From contig JAPYVP010000014.1 of the NCBI GenBank assembly GCA_028276785.1, forward strand, positions 1 through 13,213: 13,213 nt of DNA. The letters are read 5' to 3'. Made by a program: the position numbers and the translations under genes. The notes beneath the pieces are model-generated. The model was not told the DNA's origin. It saw only the letters and a list, made by a program, of their open reading frames with translations, and made no database searches. The stretch comes from Candidatus Nanopusillus sp. Its GTDB lineage: Archaea; Nanobdellota; Nanobdellia; Nanobdellales; Nanobdellaceae. Positions 1,475-11,679 of this stretch are shown here, piece after piece; the stretch's first letter is position 1; each line of letters starts with the position of its first letter.

Positions 1475-1744
1475 TTATTGATTAGAATTTAATATTTTTA
1501 TTTTTTCCCTTACTTTTTCCTTTAATAAATTTTCTAAGCATTTATGACATAAATACCCCCCATACTTTCTGCTAATTCTCTTTTGCGATAAGTTTAATCT
1601 TCTATATCTTGAAGGATGTAATGATGGTAATCCTTGTAATTTTCTTCCGCATATTGCACATTTTGGTATATTTCCTTTCTTTAATTTGACAATTACTGAT
1701 ATTTTACCAGAGGGTGTTTTTCTGATTAAATATGTCTTAGCCAT
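1475..1744 (-). CDS. rpl34e: 50S ribosomal protein L34e
   Basis: Contains ...TPSGK...KKGNIPKCAICGRKLQG...RKYGGYLCHKCL..., the L34e zinc-ribbon-like C-x-x-C ... C-x-x-C pattern with the YGG motif. Its start overlaps the upstream gene's stop by 8 nt (ATGGCTAA). Confidence 0.9.
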   Translation of the reverse strand: MAKTYLIRKTPSGKISVIVKLKKGNIPKCAICGRKLQGLPSLHPSRYRRLNLSQKRISRKYGGYLCHKCLENLLKEKVREKIKILNSNQ

Positions 1745-2360
1745 TTTTATTATCTATTTTAGATTTTTTTATAAATCTTGAGTAAATAATATTAAATACT
1801 AATAAAGAAATTTGTACTAGGATATATAATATTATATATAAAAGTAAAGGATTCAACCAATTTATATTTATTATTGGCAAATAAAATGGTAAAGTATTTG
1901 TTATAACATTTACAGATAATAATTTTGGATCATATGTTTCGTTTAAAGTTATTATATTGTAATTTGCACGGTAAAAACCCAGAAAACTATTATTATAATA
2001 TATAGCAAAATCTTGATTGTATAGTATTGGATTTGTTATTAATATACTTGTTGTATTATTTATATTTGTAATATAAAATCCTGATTGAAATGCAAAGATA
2101 ATAAAAATTAAAATAAAAATTCCAAATATAGTGATAATTATTGTGTGTTTCAGTATTTTTGAATATATTTTAGTAATTTCTCCCATAATATTACTTAATT
2201 CTTCTAATTTTCCAGATTTAAAACTTTCAATGTATCTTTTTTGTATCTCTTGCAATTTTTTTTGATGTTCTCTTATTCCAAGCTTTTTTTCAATTATTTT
2301 TATTACTATGGTTACTAGTATAACTAAAAAAAGTACATAGAAGAATAGCGCATTTATCAT
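1737..2360 (-). CDS. DUF106-type membrane protein (archaeal YidC/Oxa1-superfamily-like insertase candidate)
   Basis: Architecture is TM1 (ALFFYVLFLVILVTIVI), a charged helical hairpin (EHQKKLQEIQKRYIESFKSGKLEELSNIMGEITKIYSKILKH), TM2 (IIITIFGIFILIFIIFAF), then LPFYLPI...NWLNPLLLYIILYILVQISLL. This matches the DUF106 (M. jannaschii Mj0480-type) layout. It sits immediately after secY (ATGA overlap), the conserved archaeal position for this family. The call rests on architecture and synteny, not a computed alignment. Confidence 0.55.
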   Translation of the reverse strand: MINALFFYVLFLVILVTIVIKIIEKKLGIREHQKKLQEIQKRYIESFKSGKLEELSNIMGEITKIYSKILKHTIIITIFGIFILIFIIFAFQSGFYITNINNTTSILITNPILYNQDFAIYYNNSFLGFYRANYNIITLNETYDPKLLSVNVITNTLPFYLPIININWLNPLLLYIILYILVQISLLVFNIIYSRFIKKSKIDNKNG

Positions 2361-3712
2361 TTCAGATATTTTCCAATTAATGGTATTAAATATAACGCAT
2401 CTGCCCTCTTCAAGTCATTATATATTTGTCCGGCTATTACTATTAATAATAATATACTTACCCCAGATATTGCAGAACTTAGTATATCACTCAAAGATGC
2501 TAATAATCCCATTAAAAATCCAGATAAATATCCTATAGGATCTATATATTTTCTTAACATATCTTCTACAACTCTTGGATCTCTTGTATATAATGGAGAA
2601 TTTGGGTTACTTGTTAAATAATTTGCTAAATTTTTTGGATCTAAACCTGTAGAATATATCCAAAATTTAGATATGAACATTCCACCAACTGTAAATAATA
2701 AAAAGTAGAATATTACATGAAATATGTTGAATGGAACATATAGATATTCAATTCCAAACTGTCCAATATTTATTATTAAGTTTGGCGGAGATAATAATTG
2801 TACAATTGGATTATTAGGATTAAATCCAAATAAAGATTGTATTTGAATTATTAATGCATAAATGAATATTGCTGGAATAACAGAAGTATATAATAATTGT
2901 ATTGGATATTTAACAATTTCTCCATTAATGTTTAAATATAATAATGGAACTTCTATTTTTAGTGACTGTAGATATACTGCAAATATTAAAATTCCAATAG
3001 TAATAATTGCGGCAAATAAAAATGCAAGACCCAAATTAATATTTCCTTGAGATAAATATAAAATTCCTTCTGGTATATATCCTGTTGGTTGTGTAAACAG
3101 ACCTGTTGAAGTAGATGGGGGAGAAAGAGGATTAAATAGTCTTAGAACTAATGCAATACTTATTGTAGTTAAAATAATAACATTAATTCCAGATGTAATT
3201 CCATATTTATATGAAAAATCATCTAACAATAATATAATAATACCGCCAATAAATAATTGTAGAAATAAAATAATGTACAAAATTATTGGATCTATTTCTA
3301 AAAATACGTTTGGTGATATATTTCCACTAGCGATTAAAATAGTACTTTCTATTATAATAAATATTAATGCAATAAATCTTGCATAGTTGTCAAATTTGGT
3401 TTTTCCTTCATCAGTACTTATATCGATATTTATTATCCCAAGACCAACTAACAATTGCATAAAAATTCCAGCAATTACTATTGGAGCGATTCCTACGCTT
3501 GCTAGAGTTCCTAAATTAGATCCAAATAACCATAAAAATTGTTCAAGTCTTGTAGAAACTTCTGGAGATATTCCAAATAACGGTATTGATGCTAGAACAG
3601 TATATAATGCAATTACTAATAATGTGTTATATACTCTTTCTCTTAAAGATAATGTTTTTTTTGGTTCTTCGATGGATGGTAAGTATGAGATTATTTTATC
3701 TATTATGTTCAT
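2357..3712 (-). CDS. secY: Preprotein translocase subunit SecY (Sec61-alpha)
   Basis: 451-aa polytopic membrane protein with about 10 hydrophobic segments. The N-terminus (...RVYNTLLVIALYTVLASIPLFG) and C-terminal region are typical of archaeal SecY. It is followed by the conserved DUF106/L34e/L14e neighbours. Confidence 0.93.
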   Translation of the reverse strand: MNIIDKIISYLPSIEEPKKTLSLRERVYNTLLVIALYTVLASIPLFGISPEVSTRLEQFLWLFGSNLGTLASVGIAPIVIAGIFMQLLVGLGIINIDISTDEGKTKFDNYARFIALIFIIIESTILIASGNISPNVFLEIDPIILYIILFLQLFIGGIIILLLDDFSYKYGITSGINVIILTTISIALVLRLFNPLSPPSTSTGLFTQPTGYIPEGILYLSQGNINLGLAFLFAAIITIGILIFAVYLQSLKIEVPLLYLNINGEIVKYPIQLLYTSVIPAIFIYALIIQIQSLFGFNPNNPIVQLLSPPNLIINIGQFGIEYLYVPFNIFHVIFYFLLFTVGGMFISKFWIYSTGLDPKNLANYLTSNPNSPLYTRDPRVVEDMLRKYIDPIGYLSGFLMGLLASLSDILSSAISGVSILLLIVIAGQIYNDLKRADALYLIPLIGKYLK

Positions 3713-3744: not shown

Positions 3745-5790
3745 TTAATCAACTTTCTCTCCAGAAAATGTTTCCTGCCTTTTACCCGTTCCTCCAAGAT
3801 CTATTGGTAATTGTGAAAATATTGAGATAGAATATGGAGAGTATCTTGTATATTGAATATAATCTGGAATAACTTGTACTCCTCCATATGGTAACATTGT
3901 ATTAAATTGGTTTATAATATTTCCATATATATTATAAGGTCCAGCACCTGCAATTAAATTGTAATATTCATTTCCATAGATTGCATGAAATTGATTAACA
4001 TAATATCCACCAGGTTCATGTACAATTGTTACTTTTTTATTTTCTAATATATCTCTAATTTTCTCTAATTCTGATGCAATAACATCATCCCAACCCATTC
4101 CTAATGGTAAATGTGTATCTTCTCCAGCTTGTGTCTCATGGACATGTAAATGCTTAATTTCTGGTTTAATTTCTTCAACCCATTTTAATATATCTTCTTT
4201 CGTATATCCATACTTTTCAAACATTTTTATATGTCCAACATCTAATGTAGCTCCTATTCTTTCTTTAACAAATTCATCTACACTACCATATTTTTTCTCA
4301 ATTTCATTTTTTAATTCAGGATATTTTTCTATTACTTTTTTTACTTCTTCCCTTATATTATTTAATAATTTTTTCCATATATCGGGTCTTGTAGCAGGTG
4401 CTCCAGGATATGATTCTTCAATATTTATATAACTTAAATACTTATCAAAATCCTTATACCATCCTTCTGGATTTTTACTTATTTCTCTTTCAATTAGCAT
4501 TCTAATTCCCTCAGCTATTACTTCTGGAGCTGTTTTTATTGCAACTTCTTGATATGGTTTTACAATTGGAATTGGAAATTCTGAAAATACTGTGTTTTTT
4601 AGCTGTGATAATAGATGATTTGTATATTCAATAGATAATATCATGTCATTTACAAAATCAAACATTTTATTCATAAAATAATCTCTATATGCCGGGCTAC
4701 TATTATTCTGTACAACTTCTTTAGCAAATTTAGATATTTCATTTTCATAGTTTTCTATTCTCTTCAAGCTATCTTCAAAATGTTGTTTATAAAAGGATAT
4801 CTTATTTCTTGCAGCTTCTCTTAAATTTGGATCTGCAATATCTTTTATATTATCCCATATTGCATCAATATATTCTTTTACTTTTTCTAAGAAAGACCTG
4901 TATGTCTTTAGATTGTATAAAAATTCTCCTATTTTTTCTTGATCTGTACTAGTATATCCAAAATAACTTATTAATTGATAATTATCTAATAATCTTTTTT
5001 TTATTGAATAAAGGTTTCTATCAATATCATTAAATATATTCATCCAAACCTTTTCATTTTCTTTATAAATTTCATCAACAGCAGAAAGTCTTATTGCCCT
5101 TTCTACGGCACCAGTTAAATATCTTCCAGGCATAACAACCCCCATATATTCGTAATTTCCATTTAAATTAATGTATGCAGCTTCTTGTTTTGCAAAGGCC
5201 CAAGATGGTATATTTTTTTCTAATGTTTCCATATCAACATTATTACTAACTAGCCTATTATATTGTTCTGATGTTATATATCCTAATCTATATAATTTTT
5301 CTGCAAAAGATTTTCTAAATTCATAATTACTTAAAAGTTCATCTTTTAATCTTTTTTCAAAATCTTTATCCCATTCTGTTAATGTAAGATCTCCTGCATG
5401 CATATTTACCTTAATTGGTTCTCCATAAATTCTTGCCATTATTCCCGCACTTTCCAATATTACTGATGTTTTGTAAGCCATTTGTTTTATATTATCCTTT
5501 CTTATATTCCCCCTTTCATCTGTTGCAGGTAATTGAAAATCCCTTTCAGGAGCATGAATTGTAACTTCAACATTATTTATTCTTGCATTTCTTGCAATTT
5601 CTTCAAATATTTGTCTTGGTATATTTGCCCATTGGCCTGAAAAGGAAAATGTTTGTATTTCTACTCCAGGATATCCAGCAGATATTTTTGATAGGTATTG
5701 TTGTAACTGATTTACGGTCTGGGGACTTGTACTGGTAGATATTCCCCTATTATATAATTCCTTTGGATATTTTTTATCTTCATTATCCAT
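3745..5790 (-). CDS. Xylose-isomerase-like / endonuclease IV-like TIM-barrel metalloprotein split by a roughly 290-aa helical insertion; function unknown
   Basis: Ordered motifs are TIHAPE (H79), VNMHAGD (H131), INIEES (E458/459), ATLDVGHIKM (D517, H520), HLHVHE (H547/549/551), GEDTHLPLGMG (D558, H560) and TIVHEPGG (E592). They follow the order of the E. coli Nfo ligands H69, H109, E145, D179/H182, H216, D229/H231, E261. The H131-E458 spacing is about 327 aa against 36 aa in Nfo. The ORF is long and uninterrupted. It lies 24 nt downstream of the 560-aa gene and ends 32 nt upstream of the secY start. Confidence 0.55.
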   Translation of the reverse strand: MDNEDKKYPKELYNRGISTSTSPQTVNQLQQYLSKISAGYPGVEIQTFSFSGQWANIPRQIFEEIARNARINNVEVTIHAPERDFQLPATDERGNIRKDNIKQMAYKTSVILESAGIMARIYGEPIKVNMHAGDLTLTEWDKDFEKRLKDELLSNYEFRKSFAEKLYRLGYITSEQYNRLVSNNVDMETLEKNIPSWAFAKQEAAYINLNGNYEYMGVVMPGRYLTGAVERAIRLSAVDEIYKENEKVWMNIFNDIDRNLYSIKKRLLDNYQLISYFGYTSTDQEKIGEFLYNLKTYRSFLEKVKEYIDAIWDNIKDIADPNLREAARNKISFYKQHFEDSLKRIENYENEISKFAKEVVQNNSSPAYRDYFMNKMFDFVNDMILSIEYTNHLLSQLKNTVFSEFPIPIVKPYQEVAIKTAPEVIAEGIRMLIEREISKNPEGWYKDFDKYLSYINIEESYPGAPATRPDIWKKLLNNIREEVKKVIEKYPELKNEIEKKYGSVDEFVKERIGATLDVGHIKMFEKYGYTKEDILKWVEEIKPEIKHLHVHETQAGEDTHLPLGMGWDDVIASELEKIRDILENKKVTIVHEPGGYYVNQFHAIYGNEYYNLIAGAGPYNIYGNIINQFNTMLPYGGVQVIPDYIQYTRYSPYSISIFSQLPIDLGGTGKRQETFSGEKVD

Positions 5791-5814
5791 TTATATATAA
5801 AGGTATTTCAGAAT

Positions 5815-7497
5815 TTAATAGTTTAACATATTGAATGTCTTTTTAAATGTCATATATATTTTCCATGCAGTATCTATTGTTTTTTCTTTTGTTTCTTCTA
5901 TTATTAATTTTTTTTCTTCTTCAATACTCTTTCTTTTTATATTTTTTTCAATATTTGATAAATCCCTACCAAAAGTCGATATAACTTTAAGTAACCACAT
6001 TATAATATTTCCTAAAGTTGGAAATATTAATGAAATACTAGATTCTTTTTTTTCTTCCTTCTTTTCCTCTTTTTTATCTTCTTTTTTCTCTTTTTTCTCG
6101 CTTTCTAAATATTTTTTTATCCATGTAATACTTGATAATGCTCTTTTTATTCTCTCATCTTTTTCCAATTCTTCTATAAGTTCTCTTGTCCAGCTTATTT
6201 TATAAGGATCATTCCTTATTTCTTCAGGTTTTGCATCAGATTTTTCAGCAACTATCTTTAATAGTTTTTCATCGCTTTTTATTATATCGTATAAAAATAC
6301 TTCTAAAATTAAACCAGACATGCTTTTTATATAATCGTCTGTCAATCCTGTTATATATGCTAAATCTTCACTTTCTTGATTTATTATTATAGAATCATAT
6401 TCTTCTTTTTCAACTAAATAGGCCCTGAGTACTATATCTATCCTTCCTAGGAAAGAATACATTCTTGCATAAGTATCGGTTCTTCCTACTACAGTAGGTA
6501 TTGCTCTCGTTTTCATATCAATTTCATATAATGGTATGTAAGTTTTTTCTATTTCTTTTCCTTCTTTTTCGTCATATTCTTTTACTTTTACCTCTTTTTG
6601 ATTTGCTATTAATGAAATATTTATAATTGCTGTTTCAAATGCATTTACAACATCTATAGGTTGATCTGGATTTTGTAATAATTTTCTTGCAAATTTAAAA
6701 TACGGTTTTGCAAATTCAACATAATATAACAATGAGCTTAGTTCATGTTTTAGATAGGATTTTAATAAGACAATTCTATCATATAAAATTTTTTTATTAT
6801 TTTCAAGCCAACTATAAAATTCTATTAATCTACTATTTAATAAATTATATATTCTTCTATTTATTATTCCATTATTAAATAATTCATTTAAATCTCTTGG
6901 AGTGGTGTTTGTTTGATCATTAAATAATTTATTATATAATTCCTGACCTATTAATTTTTTATTCTTAAATTTTTCAAGTTCAGATTTTAGATCTGTAAAA
7001 AGAAATAGATCTACAATACTTGGGAACCTAGATGCCTGTAAATTTCTTAAAGCACCCGCACCCCTTGAAGAATCGACATTAGATAGCCATCTATCTTTTA
7101 ATGCCAAATAACTTGCAAGAGCTTCTTCGGGATCTTTTGATAATAAATTTTCATATAATATATATACTGAATAAAGCTGTTTATATTCATTTAAAATAGA
7201 AATAATTGTTCTTGTCAATGCGTTAATTAATTCTGCCAATGATCTTGCATTATTTAATACGTTTGTTAACCTTTGACCCATTTCTCCAAAAAATGAAGAT
7301 CCAACAGATGATGTAAAATCATCAGATAATTTATTAATGTCCATCTTTAAACTATCTCTAATAAAATCTACAAGCCAAAAATATATTTGTTCCATCCTTA
7401 TATTTGGATTATCTAATATAAGTTTTATTTCTAATATTTTATGTTTATTGTCTTCAATCTTTTCATTTTTTAAATCATCAATTTTTATATTTTTCAT
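5815..7497 (-). CDS. Hypothetical 560-aa mostly helical protein with a Lys/Glu-rich linker and C-terminal hydrophobic helix; no family recognised
   Basis: Long uninterrupted ORF in DNA where stop codons are frequent. Composition is helix-favouring throughout, with a short beta-like core (residues 320-365). There is a KE-rich tract ESEKKEKKEDKKEEKKEEKKE (residues 465-485) followed by SISLIFPTLGNIIMWLLKVISTF. I saw no Walker A or other catalytic motif. Confidence refers to it being a real gene. Met35 (MEQIYFW) is an alternative start. Confidence 0.8.
   Translation of the reverse strand: MKNIKIDDLKNEKIEDNKHKILEIKLILDNPNIRMEQIYFWLVDFIRDSLKMDINKLSDDFTSSVGSSFFGEMGQRLTNVLNNARSLAELINALTRTIISILNEYKQLYSVYILYENLLSKDPEEALASYLALKDRWLSNVDSSRGAGALRNLQASRFPSIVDLFLFTDLKSELEKFKNKKLIGQELYNKLFNDQTNTTPRDLNELFNNGIINRRIYNLLNSRLIEFYSWLENNKKILYDRIVLLKSYLKHELSSLLYYVEFAKPYFKFARKLLQNPDQPIDVVNAFETAIINISLIANQKEVKVKEYDEKEGKEIEKTYIPLYEIDMKTRAIPTVVGRTDTYARMYSFLGRIDIVLRAYLVEKEEYDSIIINQESEDLAYITGLTDDYIKSMSGLILEVFLYDIIKSDEKLLKIVAEKSDAKPEEIRNDPYKISWTRELIEELEKDERIKRALSSITWIKKYLESEKKEKKEDKKEEKKEEKKESSISLIFPTLGNIIMWLLKVISTFGRDLSNIEKNIKRKSIEEEKKLIIEETKEKTIDTAWKIYMTFKKTFNMLNY
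6043..6106 (-). repeat. Low-complexity polypurine (coding strand) / polypyrimidine (+ strand) tract encoding the KE-rich linker
   Basis: The + strand at 6043-6106 is a run of T/C with only two purines (a6076, g6100). It consists of degenerate ttc/ttt/ctt triplets and is in frame with the 560-aa CDS (AAA/AAG/GAA codons). Confidence 0.8.
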
Positions 7498-7561: not shown

Positions 7562-8104
7562 ATGAAGATGAATTTAATAATATTATCAAGTAGAGGGTTT
7601 GATGAAGACGATCTTTTTAACTTTTTAGATATATTGGATGGTAGAACATATATTGCTATAAAAAATAGAAAAATTGGAATAGGAAAATATAAAAGTAAAG
7701 TATTACCAGATTTTGATATACATGAAATATTCTTAATGAGAGAAAACCATTTTGATAGGTTGATATATATTTCTGATGAAGGATATAAAGAATTTTTAAA
7801 TGTAGAGTCTCAAGCAATATTTACAAGATTTATAAATTCATACAGGACGGTTATATTATCTTCTTTATCACAAATAGCATTTTTAAAATCTGGTTTATTA
7901 GCGGGAAGAACAATAACATATAATTATGATGAATATCCACAATATTTAAAATTCTTTCCAGATTTTGGTGTGAAATTGGTAACAAATGCGGATTATGTAG
8001 TAGATAAAAATCTAATAACTGTAAAGGGTAGAGACTCTATATATTCTTTAGGTGAAAAATTGAAAGATATAGAAGAAGAATTAAGAAAAATTAGTAATAT
8101 ATAA
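7562..8104 (+). CDS. DJ-1/PfpI-fold (class I glutamine amidotransferase-like) protein lacking the nucleophile Cys; probable pseudoenzyme
   Basis: By-eye alignment to PfpI/PH1704-type proteins, recalled from memory. [15 protein letters not shown] matches KVLFL..[18 protein letters not shown] matches [37 protein letters not shown] matches [43 protein letters not shown] matches VVVDGNWVSSRVPAD. The Cys-His of ICHGP is replaced by Leu102-Ser103 (7865-7870). Confidence 0.55.
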   Translation: [180 protein letters not shown]

Positions 8105-8683
8105 ATTATATTTACGTAATTCCTTATTAATATAGTAAAAACCAATAAATGATAATATTAATAATAATGGAAATGTAGATCCAATTATGGATATTCTAAA
8201 GTATTTATTTATATTTTGATTCTTTAAATGAATAACAATATTATATAATTTTTTTAATATTAAATAATTTGATACTCCAATGATTATTAGCCCAAGATAT
8301 GTAATAAAAATAGATACAAGTATCCCTATATATATCATTGAAAATAAATTATTCGGATAATATTCTCTATTTATCATTTTTTCAATTATCCTAAACATCT
8401 TCTTTAAGTATTCTATGGATAAAAAATATGAAATAATAGAAATAATAATTAATATAATTAAAATTGCTCCCATATTAATTAAATTAAGGGAAATATACAA
8501 TATTGATAAAGATAATGATGGGCTAAATATTAATGTAAATGGACTCATAGTACTATTATATGTAGAAAAAAAGGATAGAATTATAAATAATAAATATGAT
8601 GAAAAACCCAAAATACTAGATATATACGTAATTTTAGAATAACTATTTAGACTATTTATGAATTCTGATAAATTTTCATTCAT
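8081..8683 (-). CDS. Hypothetical polytopic membrane protein (about 5 TM segments)
   Basis: 200-aa ORF with repeated 20-25 residue hydrophobic stretches separated by short K/R/N-rich loops. A TATA-like TTATAAAAAT (complement of 8703-8712) lies 20-29 nt upstream of the ATG. No family recognised. Confidence 0.65.
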   Translation of the reverse strand: MNENLSEFINSLNSYSKITYISSILGFSSYLLFIILSFFSTYNSTMSPFTLIFSPSLSLSILYISLNLINMGAILIILIIISIISYFLSIEYLKKMFRIIEKMINREYYPNNLFSMIYIGILVSIFITYLGLIIIGVSNYLILKKLYNIVIHLKNQNINKYFRISIIGSTFPLLLILSFIGFYYINKELRKYNLYITNFS

Positions 8684-8713
8684 TCTATATTTTTAAACTT
8701 AAATTTTTATAAG

Positions 8714-8796
8714 CGCCGCGGGTGGGATTTGAACCCACGCCCCCTTTCGGGGATATGGTCTCGAGCCATACCCCTTGTCCGCTCGGGCACCGCGGC
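8714..8796 (-). tRNA. tRNA-Ser (anticodon CGA), class II with long variable arm
   Basis: Reverse complement reads GCCGCGGTGCCCGAGCGGACAAGGGGTATGGCTCGAGACCATATCCCCGAAAGGGGGCGTGGGTTCAAATCCCACCCGCGGCG. The acceptor stem is GCCGCGG/CCGCGGC. The anticodon stem is TATGG/CCATA with loop CTCGAGA (anticodon CGA). The variable arm is TCCCCGAAAGGGGGC, the T-arm is GTGGG-TTCAAAT-CCCAC, and the discriminator is G. Length 83 nt, no intron, CCA not encoded. Confidence 0.93.
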
Positions 8797-11106: not shown

Positions 11107-11679
11107 ATGATAGAAAAAGAATATGTTGAAAGTTTAAAAGAAAAATTTAGAGAATTTGAAAATAAAAAAGATAAAATAATTGAACTGGGAGTAAAATTAA
11201 ATAGAACATCAAAATCAATAATATATTCAGTAATAAGAGGTGATATAAAATCTGCAAATGAATATATGGTTGAAATGGATAAATATAAAGAAGAAATAGA
11301 TAAGATTGTAAGAGAAGAACCGAGATTGTATAATAATGCTCAAATAAGTTATCAGGAGTATGTAGAAGCAAAAATATTCTATAATTTTATATTAAATAAT
11401 AGAATACCAAAGAATGATGAATTAAAGGTTGATGAGTATTCATATGTTATGGGATTGATGGATTTTGTTGGAGAATTGTATAGAAAATCTATAGAAGAAA
11501 TGTTAAAGAATAATGTGGAGTTTGCTTTGAGGGCTAGGGAAATTATATATGAAATATACAAAAATATGTTATATATGGAATTTAAAAATTATGATATAAG
11601 GAGAAAGGTAGATTATGTTGGAGATATATATAATCTATTAACAGATAAAATATTTATAAGAAAAGTTTCTAGAGAATAA
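11107..11679 (+). CDS. Translin-family protein (archaeal C3PO-like RNase candidate)
   Basis: 190-aa all-helical protein with ...ISYQEYVEAKIFYNF... (E84-x-x-E87) and ...YVMGLMDFVGELYRK... (D119). This matches the translin/TRAX family pattern including the acidic residues that are catalytic in TRAX/archaeal C3PO. It starts 4 nt after the truD stop. Confidence 0.75.
   Translation: MIEKEYVESLKEKFREFENKKDKIIELGVKLNRTSKSIIYSVIRGDIKSANEYMVEMDKYKEEIDKIVREEPRLYNNAQISYQEYVEAKIFYNFILNNRIPKNDELKVDEYSYVMGLMDFVGELYRKSIEEMLKNNVEFALRAREIIYEIYKNMLYMEFKNYDIRRKVDYVGDIYNLLTDKIFIRKVSRE

Follow-up and report, generated by a model that had tools for sequence, protein, structure and literature searches.

A xylose isomerase-like barrel split by a helical domain, with an endonuclease IV-type ligand set and an orphan partner gene, conserved throughout Nanoarchaeota

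The xylose isomerase-like triosephosphate isomerase (TIM) barrels of Pfam family PF01261 (AP_endonuc_2) include endonuclease IV of Escherichia coli (Nfo, PDB 1QTW), which belongs to apurinic/apyrimidinic (AP) endonuclease family 2, while the ketose 3-epimerases and sugar isomerases (D-psicose/D-tagatose 3-epimerase, L-rhamnose isomerase) fall in the same barrel superfamily and the cobamide-remodelling phosphodiesterase CbiR (NCBIfam NF041277) is a PF01261-type barrel with a non-DNA substrate. A further member is MJ1311 of Methanocaldococcus jannaschii (PDB 3WQO, 293 residues), a plain single-domain barrel that carries the label 'D-tagatose 3-epimerase-like protein' in the PDB and that reportedly keeps all nine zinc ligands of endonuclease IV. 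The present analysis concerns a relative of these proteins encoded in a 13,213-nucleotide stretch of Candidatus Nanopusillus DNA (contig JAPYVP010000014.1, here called the window), in which a complete open reading frame (ORF) at positions 3745-5790 of the minus strand specifies a TIM-barrel protein of 681 residues plus stop, whose barrel is interrupted by an inserted segment and followed by a tail at the C-terminus. This protein is predicted to be one xylose isomerase-like (β/α)8 barrel of the MJ1311/endonuclease IV type, split by a helical insert, and represents an uncharacterised family that is spread throughout Nanoarchaeota (Nanobdellota); its function may be that of a capped, metal-dependent phosphodiesterase acting together with an orphan protein encoded directly upstream.

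The relationship with MJ1311 emerged only from the more diverse of the profiles that were used. Searches of the PDB with the single protein, or with a profile of its close homologues, returned just coiled-coil and designed-helix noise, while the family profile, which represents 26 diverse homologues, found MJ1311 as the sole solved structure, with expectation values (E) of 5.1e-12 and 2.7e-10 for the profile versions A2 and A4, respectively. The match is colinear with both halves of the target, the N-terminal half corresponding to MJ1311 residues 72-134 and the C-terminal half to residues 179-282, and the two proteins share the ligand pattern HAP, H-x-G, D-x-G-H, H-x-H-x-x-D-N and D-x-H-L-x-x-G-x-G, including a His-to-Asp spacing of 9 residues at strand 7. 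The loop formed by E139 and W140 of the target is the counterpart of the 'ELW' loop (E-x-W) that follows strand 4 of MJ1311, and it is a few residues past this loop that the target adds approximately 260 residues to the plain barrel of its relative. Also in contrast to MJ1311, the target family possesses a conserved tail of about 81 residues and a dedicated upstream partner, and is found in Nanoarchaeota only.

That the two halves on either side of the insert constitute one barrel is supported by several kinds of comparison. A PF01261 match, a search that had been proposed when the protein was initially described from its sequence (hereafter the original prediction), was obtained above Pfam's own threshold (41.1 bits versus a gathering cut-off of 31.1; E 2.2e-10), and the same model matches 25 of the 26 diverse homologues (best E 3.1e-16). 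The N-terminal 141 residues alone align with PF01261 positions 6-69 (E 0.0017) and the C-terminal block alone with positions 143-206 (E 1e-6), while deletion of the insert from the homologue P0080 results in one continuous alignment that extends over positions 21-220 of 249 (E 4.7e-13). The AlphaFold2 model of the target (mean predicted local distance difference test score, pLDDT, 77.5; predicted template modelling score, pTM, 0.79) contains eight strands, each with helices after it. Four of these lie in the N-terminal half (residues ~15-141; window 5368-5748, minus strand) at residues 18-20, 42-46, 75-79 and 127-131, the last two ending at H79 and H131, and four in the C-terminal half (residues 406-596; 4003-4575, minus strand) at residues 454-458, 512-517, 545-550 and 588-591. 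In a Foldseek search the model returned weak matches only (all E > 0.09), which include barrels of endonuclease IV, psicose epimerase, rhamnose isomerase and DgpB-C at probabilities of 0.75-0.9. Taken with the PF01261 fragments, the colinearity with MJ1311 and the predicted strands, these matches indicate that the two halves are parts of one TIM barrel, as had been anticipated; in the model, the helix at residues 413-439 is likely to be barrel helix 4.

Could the arrangement be an artefact, either a fusion of two genes introduced by gene calling or assembly, or a chance order of motifs in AT-rich sequence (the window has a G+C content of ~25% over its 13.2 kb)? Nothing was found in favour of this, and its chance is very small, because 66 close homologues share the same uninterrupted architecture, as do 345 representative clusters, and both complete genomes and contigs as long as 773 kb carry it, with the insert constantly present and both halves conserved.

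Within this barrel, equivalents of all nine ligands of the trinuclear zinc site of Nfo are present, in the same order and on the same predicted strands, as the original prediction had proposed. All of the motifs that it listed occur at the residues given, their codons map as expected, and the correspondence drawn between residues 140-450 and DNA positions 4443-5373 is correct. Conservation was assessed across 282 members of the family, aligned with MAFFT and 21-100% identical to the window protein, and the Nfo reference sequence used for the comparison is identical to that of PDB 1QTW. All codons lie on the minus strand. The equivalent of Nfo H69 is H79 in the HAP motif (5554-5556), conserved in 280 of 280 sequences, and that of H109 is H131 in the MHAG motif (5398-5400; 282 of 282). 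Nfo E145 corresponds to E458 in the NIEES motif (4417-4419; 282 of 282), so that the separation of H131 from E458 is 327 residues, compared with 36 between H109 and E145 of Nfo, both as originally stated. The LDVGH motif (D517-V-G-H520; 4231-4242) provides the equivalents of D179 (282/282) and H182 (279/282), H549 in the strand-7 motif HLHVHE (4144-4146; 282/282) that of H216, the D558-T-H560 segment of EDTHLPLGMG (4111-4119) those of D229 and H231, and E592 in the VHEP motif (4015-4017) that of E261 (281 of 281).

Two of these assignments required refinement, since the original prediction had left the strand-7 ligand within H547-551 and the glutamate ligand between E458 and E459. H549 is invariant, while H547 is found in 251 of the 282 sequences and the other 31 have K, Q, F or N at this position, which identifies H549 as the equivalent of Nfo H216; the strand-7 consensus of the family here is 'HLTDN', versus 'HLNDA' in Nfo. 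Similarly, E458 is the invariant glutamate and position 459 is N in 210 of the 282. The forecast conservation of the His, Asp and Glu residues among homologues was thus borne out, with seven positions invariant or nearly so and the remaining two undergoing a paired exchange: the D558/H560 pair reads (D,H) in 235 sequences, while a subgroup of 35 has (H,E), the motif 'GEDTHLP' there becoming 'GEHTELP'. Either version retains one imidazole and one carboxylate, which is the behaviour expected of a metal-binding pair. In the AlphaFold2 model, H79, H131, E458, D517, H547/H549 and E592 are positioned at or just past the strand ends, in the fashion of a TIM-barrel active site, the ligands being distributed over the ends of strands 3-8, and D558 and H560 are carried by a loop comprising residues 553-568.

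A subset of these residues would also serve a different enzyme. The Glu-Asp-His-Glu tetrad of the ketose 3-epimerases has its counterpart in the invariant E458, D517, H549 and E592 of the target, which could accordingly be read as a sugar or sugar-phosphate isomerase or epimerase with a single Mn/Co site. PF01261 is dominated by such enzymes, the Foldseek search gave psicose/tagatose-epimerase and rhamnose-isomerase barrels as often as endonuclease IV, and MJ1311 has reportedly been described as D-tagatose 3-epimerase-like. Most automated annotations agree with this reading, although the database names of the target's relatives are inconsistent, ranging from 'hypothetical protein' to 'sugar phosphate isomerase/epimerase' and 'AP endonuclease'. 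However, the tetrad does not discriminate between the two types of enzyme because it also forms part of the endonuclease IV ligand set, and the target has five more invariant metal-type residues than the epimerases and isomerases. These five (H79, H131, H520, D558 and H560) are unneeded by epimerases, yet invariant or compensated, and an isomerase would leave them unexplained. In addition, no sugar-isomerase NCBIfam model matches the target, carbohydrate-metabolism genes are absent from its neighbourhood, and the Nanopusillaceae are almost devoid of sugar metabolism, all of which makes an isomerase quite doubtful.

The insertion itself comprises residues 142-405 (window 4576-5367, minus strand) and occupies the loop between strand 4 and helix 4, beginning just past the conserved pair of E139 and an aromatic residue at position 140 (W140 here) and ending before helix 413-439. 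Most of it is modelled by AlphaFold2 with a pLDDT of 85-97, as short helices (residues 142-199), a β hairpin (202-219) and four long helices of 32-44 residues each (237-280, 284-315, 321-362 and 366-404; DNA 4579-5082), and these helices between residues 142 and 404 support the helical character that had been ascribed to the 140-450 segment. An insert is present in all 282 homologues, with a length of 174-293 residues (median 228), and includes two nearly invariant residues, N245 (274/282) and W249 (277/282), whose conservation suggests that they touch either the active site or a partner. Beyond its own family, the inserted segment has no homologue in Pfam or the PDB, where all matches were to coiled-coil or helical-bundle proteins at non-specific levels. 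Derivation from the neighbouring partner gene was considered and ruled out (hhalign probability 0.7%). A search with a profile from which the insert had been deleted found no short, insert-free relative.

The C-terminal tail (residues 597-681; 3748-4002, minus strand) is modelled with low confidence but has conserved motifs. Its length is constant at approximately 81 residues in nearly all of the 282 relatives, and it displays conserved Gly, Pro and aromatic positions (Y635, F658-S-x-L-P662-x-x-L-G-G666 and F675-S-G677), a pattern that, in view of the model, would fit an extended arm binding another subunit or protein.

A candidate for such a protein is encoded immediately upstream. The partner gene (5815-7497, minus strand; 560 residues) belongs to an orphan family that is itself conserved across the Nanoarchaeota, and ends 24 nucleotides before the ATG of the target, in the same reading frame. 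The 24-nucleotide spacer beyond the partner stop codon (5791-5814, minus strand) contains TTTATATATAA, which ends 2 nucleotides before the ATG and might represent a TATA-like element, or else nothing more than an AT-rich stretch of spacer. Of 83 loci, 63 have a homologue of the partner upstream of the target in the same orientation, and in the majority of the remaining loci the upstream sequence is missing; members of the partner family elsewhere have ~460-575 residues, and the family shows invariant motifs such as 'EP-x-YFW-x-LDF' and, at the C-terminus, 'YD-x-YKK-x-HGM'. The partner has no match in Pfam, NCBIfam, PADLOC or a PDB sequence-profile search. AlphaFold2 predicts it confidently (pLDDT 84.5), with unusually long strands of 11-24 residues and helices of 45-60 residues, and the model has no recognisable fold, Foldseek finding nothing significant in the PDB or BFVD. 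Several Joint Genome Institute (JGI) entries name the partner 'ribosomal protein L24E', probably because of a Lys/Glu-rich stretch at residues ~465-485.

The surroundings of the pair differ between lineages. In the Nanopusillaceae the gene order is partner, target, SecY, YidC-like protein, L34e and L14e, while intermediate lineages have an ORF of 88 or 287 residues between partner and target. In the Woesearchaeota and Pacearchaeota the order is partner, a charged ORF of ~200 residues, target and a Pol-beta-type nucleotidyltransferase of ~280 residues. The ~200-residue ORF is variable and highly charged (loci L004-L083; for example, positions 5399-5980 of L006), and the Pol-beta/NTP_transf_2 gene is directly downstream of the target in ~62 loci (for example, L006 7924-8778); the three loci that were examined from the Nanopusillaceae (L001-L003) have neither of these genes beside the pair. 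In 16 Woesearchaeota and Pacearchaeota loci (L004-L006, L048 and L052 among them), a gene for an HhH-GPD base-excision glycosylase is located within ~3 kb, 2-4 genes upstream of the cluster and on the opposite strand, an arrangement that is perhaps a sign of DNA repair, or else just a gene order passed on by descent. A role in defence was rejected, since PADLOC gave no match for either the target or the partner and the surroundings are of a housekeeping nature (SecY, ribosomal proteins, aminoacyl-tRNA synthetases).

From the sequence and the predicted fold, we infer that the target is a phosphodiester hydrolase with two or three bound metal ions. In the mechanism proposed, H79, H131, E458, D517/H520, H549, D558/H560 and E592, at the C-terminal ends of strands 3-8, would build a bi- or trinuclear metal site that activates water for phosphodiester cleavage. 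The loop after strand 4, on the catalytic face, would be enlarged to a domain of ~260 residues made up of small helices, the hairpin and a four-helix bundle, and since the insert leaves the barrel on this face, the helical domain next to the active site would most likely be a cap, a dimerisation module or a partner-docking module. The tail of ~81 residues would probably reach another subunit or the partner protein, and the enzyme would act jointly with the orphan protein encoded directly upstream, with which it would be co-transcribed. To this reading as a whole, a capped two- or three-metal phosphodiesterase with a partner and with nucleic acid as the leading guess for its substrate, we assign a probability of roughly 0.4. 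The substrate itself, for instance damaged or blocked DNA ends or abasic sites, is a tentative choice with rather less than even odds, and is based on the endonuclease IV-type ligands, the HhH-GPD glycosylase in 16 loci and the downstream nucleotidyltransferase. A further pointer counted in its favour is that the sole hint from NCBIfam is CbiR, a phosphodiesterase; this best match (E 4.6e-5) reaches 23 bits against a cut-off of 105 bits and covers residues 500-573, the strand 6-7 region only.

Several observations weigh against a nucleic acid enzyme of this type. The strand-7 signature of Nfo is H216-x12-D229-x-H231 (PROSITE family-2), a spacing of 13, compared with 9 in the target (H549-x8-D558-x-H560), and the HLN of Nfo is replaced by HVH. 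The match to Nfo profiles that the original prediction had looked to was not obtained: Nfo-specific NCBIfam models give no match at E <= 1, and the family profiles A1, A2 and A4 match no endonuclease IV chain in the PDB at E <= 10. An hhalign comparison of the insert-deleted profile with Nfo gave a probability of 1.7%, although this one-sequence template is too weak for the purpose. The DNA-recognition loops of Nfo are likewise not recognisable in the target and, as far as sequence comparison can tell, the target does not belong to the Nfo family in the strict sense. MJ1311 is also said to be without the DNA-binding groove of endonuclease IV. In the AlphaFold2 model of the target, the D558/H560 loop and the tail have a pLDDT below 50, and a large domain on the catalytic face, if placed as predicted, could block the access of duplex DNA. 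The genes of the neighbourhood, moreover, may be together through descent and not because they work together. Finally, an AP endonuclease need not be missing, since a relative, Nanoarchaeum equitans, has a canonical endonuclease IV (PMC2614490). N. equitans also encodes a short AP_endonuc_2 protein of 293 residues, NEQ368, in an operon with a DEAD/DEAH helicase, which is among the most abundant proteins of this organism (PMC3149612). Such abundance is odd for a repair nuclease. NEQ368 was rejected as an orthologue of the target on the grounds that its architecture differs, with 293 residues, no insert and a helicase operon.

The same barrel and metal site could instead serve a substrate other than nucleic acid, the target being a phosphodiesterase or phosphatase for small molecules or lipid head-groups (for example, glycerophosphodiesters, nucleotide-linked cofactors or host-derived archaeal phospholipids, which these symbionts, as lipid auxotrophs, would need to remodel), with the cap closing the substrate pocket. 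The reported lack of a DNA groove in MJ1311 and the sub-threshold similarity to CbiR both agree with this possibility, as does the predicted exit of the insert from the barrel on the catalytic face, in the manner of a pocket cap. Very small genomes devoid of lipid and nucleotide synthesis have furthermore kept the family, and the Foldseek hits for the β region of the partner model include several lipid-binding folds (START/PYL, CERT, Ups1, JHBP and CETP) with probabilities of 0.25 or less. These hits are non-significant, however, and the target has no signal peptide or membrane segment; lipid- and cofactor-metabolism genes are absent from the conserved neighbourhood, and the full set of nine ligands is best known from DNA enzymes. 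On balance, a phosphodiester other than nucleic acid comes close to nucleic acid in likelihood, although by itself it is less probable than not.

Alternatively, the barrel might be mainly a structural scaffold in a large assembly with its insert, its tail and the partner, catalysis being secondary or lost. Such a role would suit the long helical bundle and the conserved, extended tail, as well as the many long helices and strands of the orphan partner, and the abundance of NEQ368 shows that barrels of this type can be very highly expressed in this group (PMC3149612), but NEQ368 has no insert. The strict invariance of the ligands over 21-100% identity argues for retained catalysis, and a pure scaffold is accordingly highly improbable.

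A bolder version of the phosphodiesterase proposal, which is speculative and on present indications unlikely, holds that the split barrel and the orphan partner form a Nanoarchaeota-specific machine, joined in the Woesearchaeota and Pacearchaeota by the small charged protein; it might be, for example, a capped trinuclear-metal phosphodiesterase acting on host lipid head-groups or nucleic acids, with the new-fold protein holding the substrate. To our knowledge, a machine of this kind has no counterpart in free-living archaea. Were it to exist, it would be part of the scavenging biology that sustains ultra-small symbionts without lipid and nucleotide synthesis; should the target prove to be a plain DNA-repair nuclease, it would still show how a helical module and a partner of its own can be joined to the chemistry of endonuclease IV.

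The original prediction had regarded the protein as an unusual endonuclease IV/xylose isomerase-like variant. It is a PF01261 protein with an inserted domain, but it stands outside the Nfo family proper and is a member of a phylum-wide family rather than a one-off. An exhaustive profile search of 1.84 billion representative sequences retrieved 345 clusters at E <= 1e-3, 228 of them at E <= 1e-10, and family members are ~590-760 residues long, a few short fragments aside, among the matches listed. When each GTDB species was represented by a single genome, at least 576 genomes encoded a relative, and the 80 loci listed all bear the label Woesearchaeota, Pacearchaeota, Nanoarchaeota/Nanoarchaeia or an unclassified 'archaeon'. 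We found no curated family, solved structure or paper dealing with the insert-bearing family, no description of it in the literature on Nanopusillus, DPANN, Woesearchaeota, MJ1311 or 3WQO, and no earlier report of a metal barrel of the endonuclease IV/MJ1311 type whose catalytic face carries an insertion the size of a domain.

The loops of TIM barrels often accommodate inserted domains, so that the fold by itself is not startling; the interest of the family rests jointly on its phylum-wide conservation in reduced genomes, its full trinuclear-type ligand set and its dedicated orphan partner. Nanopusillaceae genomes measure ~0.6-0.8 Mb, of which the target and partner occupy 3.7 kb, and the preservation of the pair from Nanopusillus to the Woesearchaeota and Pacearchaeota implies an important, so far undescribed function. 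The family may help to assign a function to the orphan crystal structure of MJ1311, and provides DPANN biology with a conserved, testable protein pair, of which at least one carrier, Nanobdella aerobiophila, is in culture.

Compared with the target and its partner, the remainder of the window is conventional, being an archaeal housekeeping set that includes SecY (2357-3712, minus strand), ribosomal proteins L34e and L14e, a tryptophanyl-tRNA synthetase (TrpRS), TruD/Pus7, a translin-like protein and an M50 protease. The target protein is 100% identical to a JGI/NCBI entry from this very contig and 81-91% identical to proteins named Candidatus Nanopusillus, a genus placed in the Nanopusillaceae, Nanoarchaeia, phylum Nanobdellota. 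Rfam and tRNA scans found no RNA gene overlapping the target; elsewhere in the window, genes for tRNA-Ala(CGC) at 771-842 and tRNA-Ser(CGA) at 8713-8796, both on the minus strand, were identified with the agreement of Rfam. The gene that follows SecY (1737-2360, minus strand) encodes a multi-pass membrane protein of 207 residues without Pfam recognition here, and the gene at the same position in the related locus L085 (10411-10842) has a weak match to EMC3/TMCO1 (PF01956); the product is probably an archaeal YidC/Oxa1-like insertase.

On the plus strand, a divergently transcribed ORF of 180 residues (7562-8104) is degenerate DJ-1/PfpI-like in sequence (E 0.12), with counterparts in loci L084 and L085 that match PF01965 clearly, and its 3' end overlaps an opposite-strand membrane ORF of 200 residues (8081-8683) by 24 nucleotides. 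A translin-family protein (PF01997, E 2e-10) is encoded beside TruD at 11107-11679 of the plus strand, a pairing that is also present in Nanobdella (locus L001). Lastly, in the related Nanoarchaeia contig of locus L084, the gene for the aIF5B/IF-2 GTPase (12187-15567, minus strand) contains an intein with a LAGLIDADG homing-endonuclease domain.

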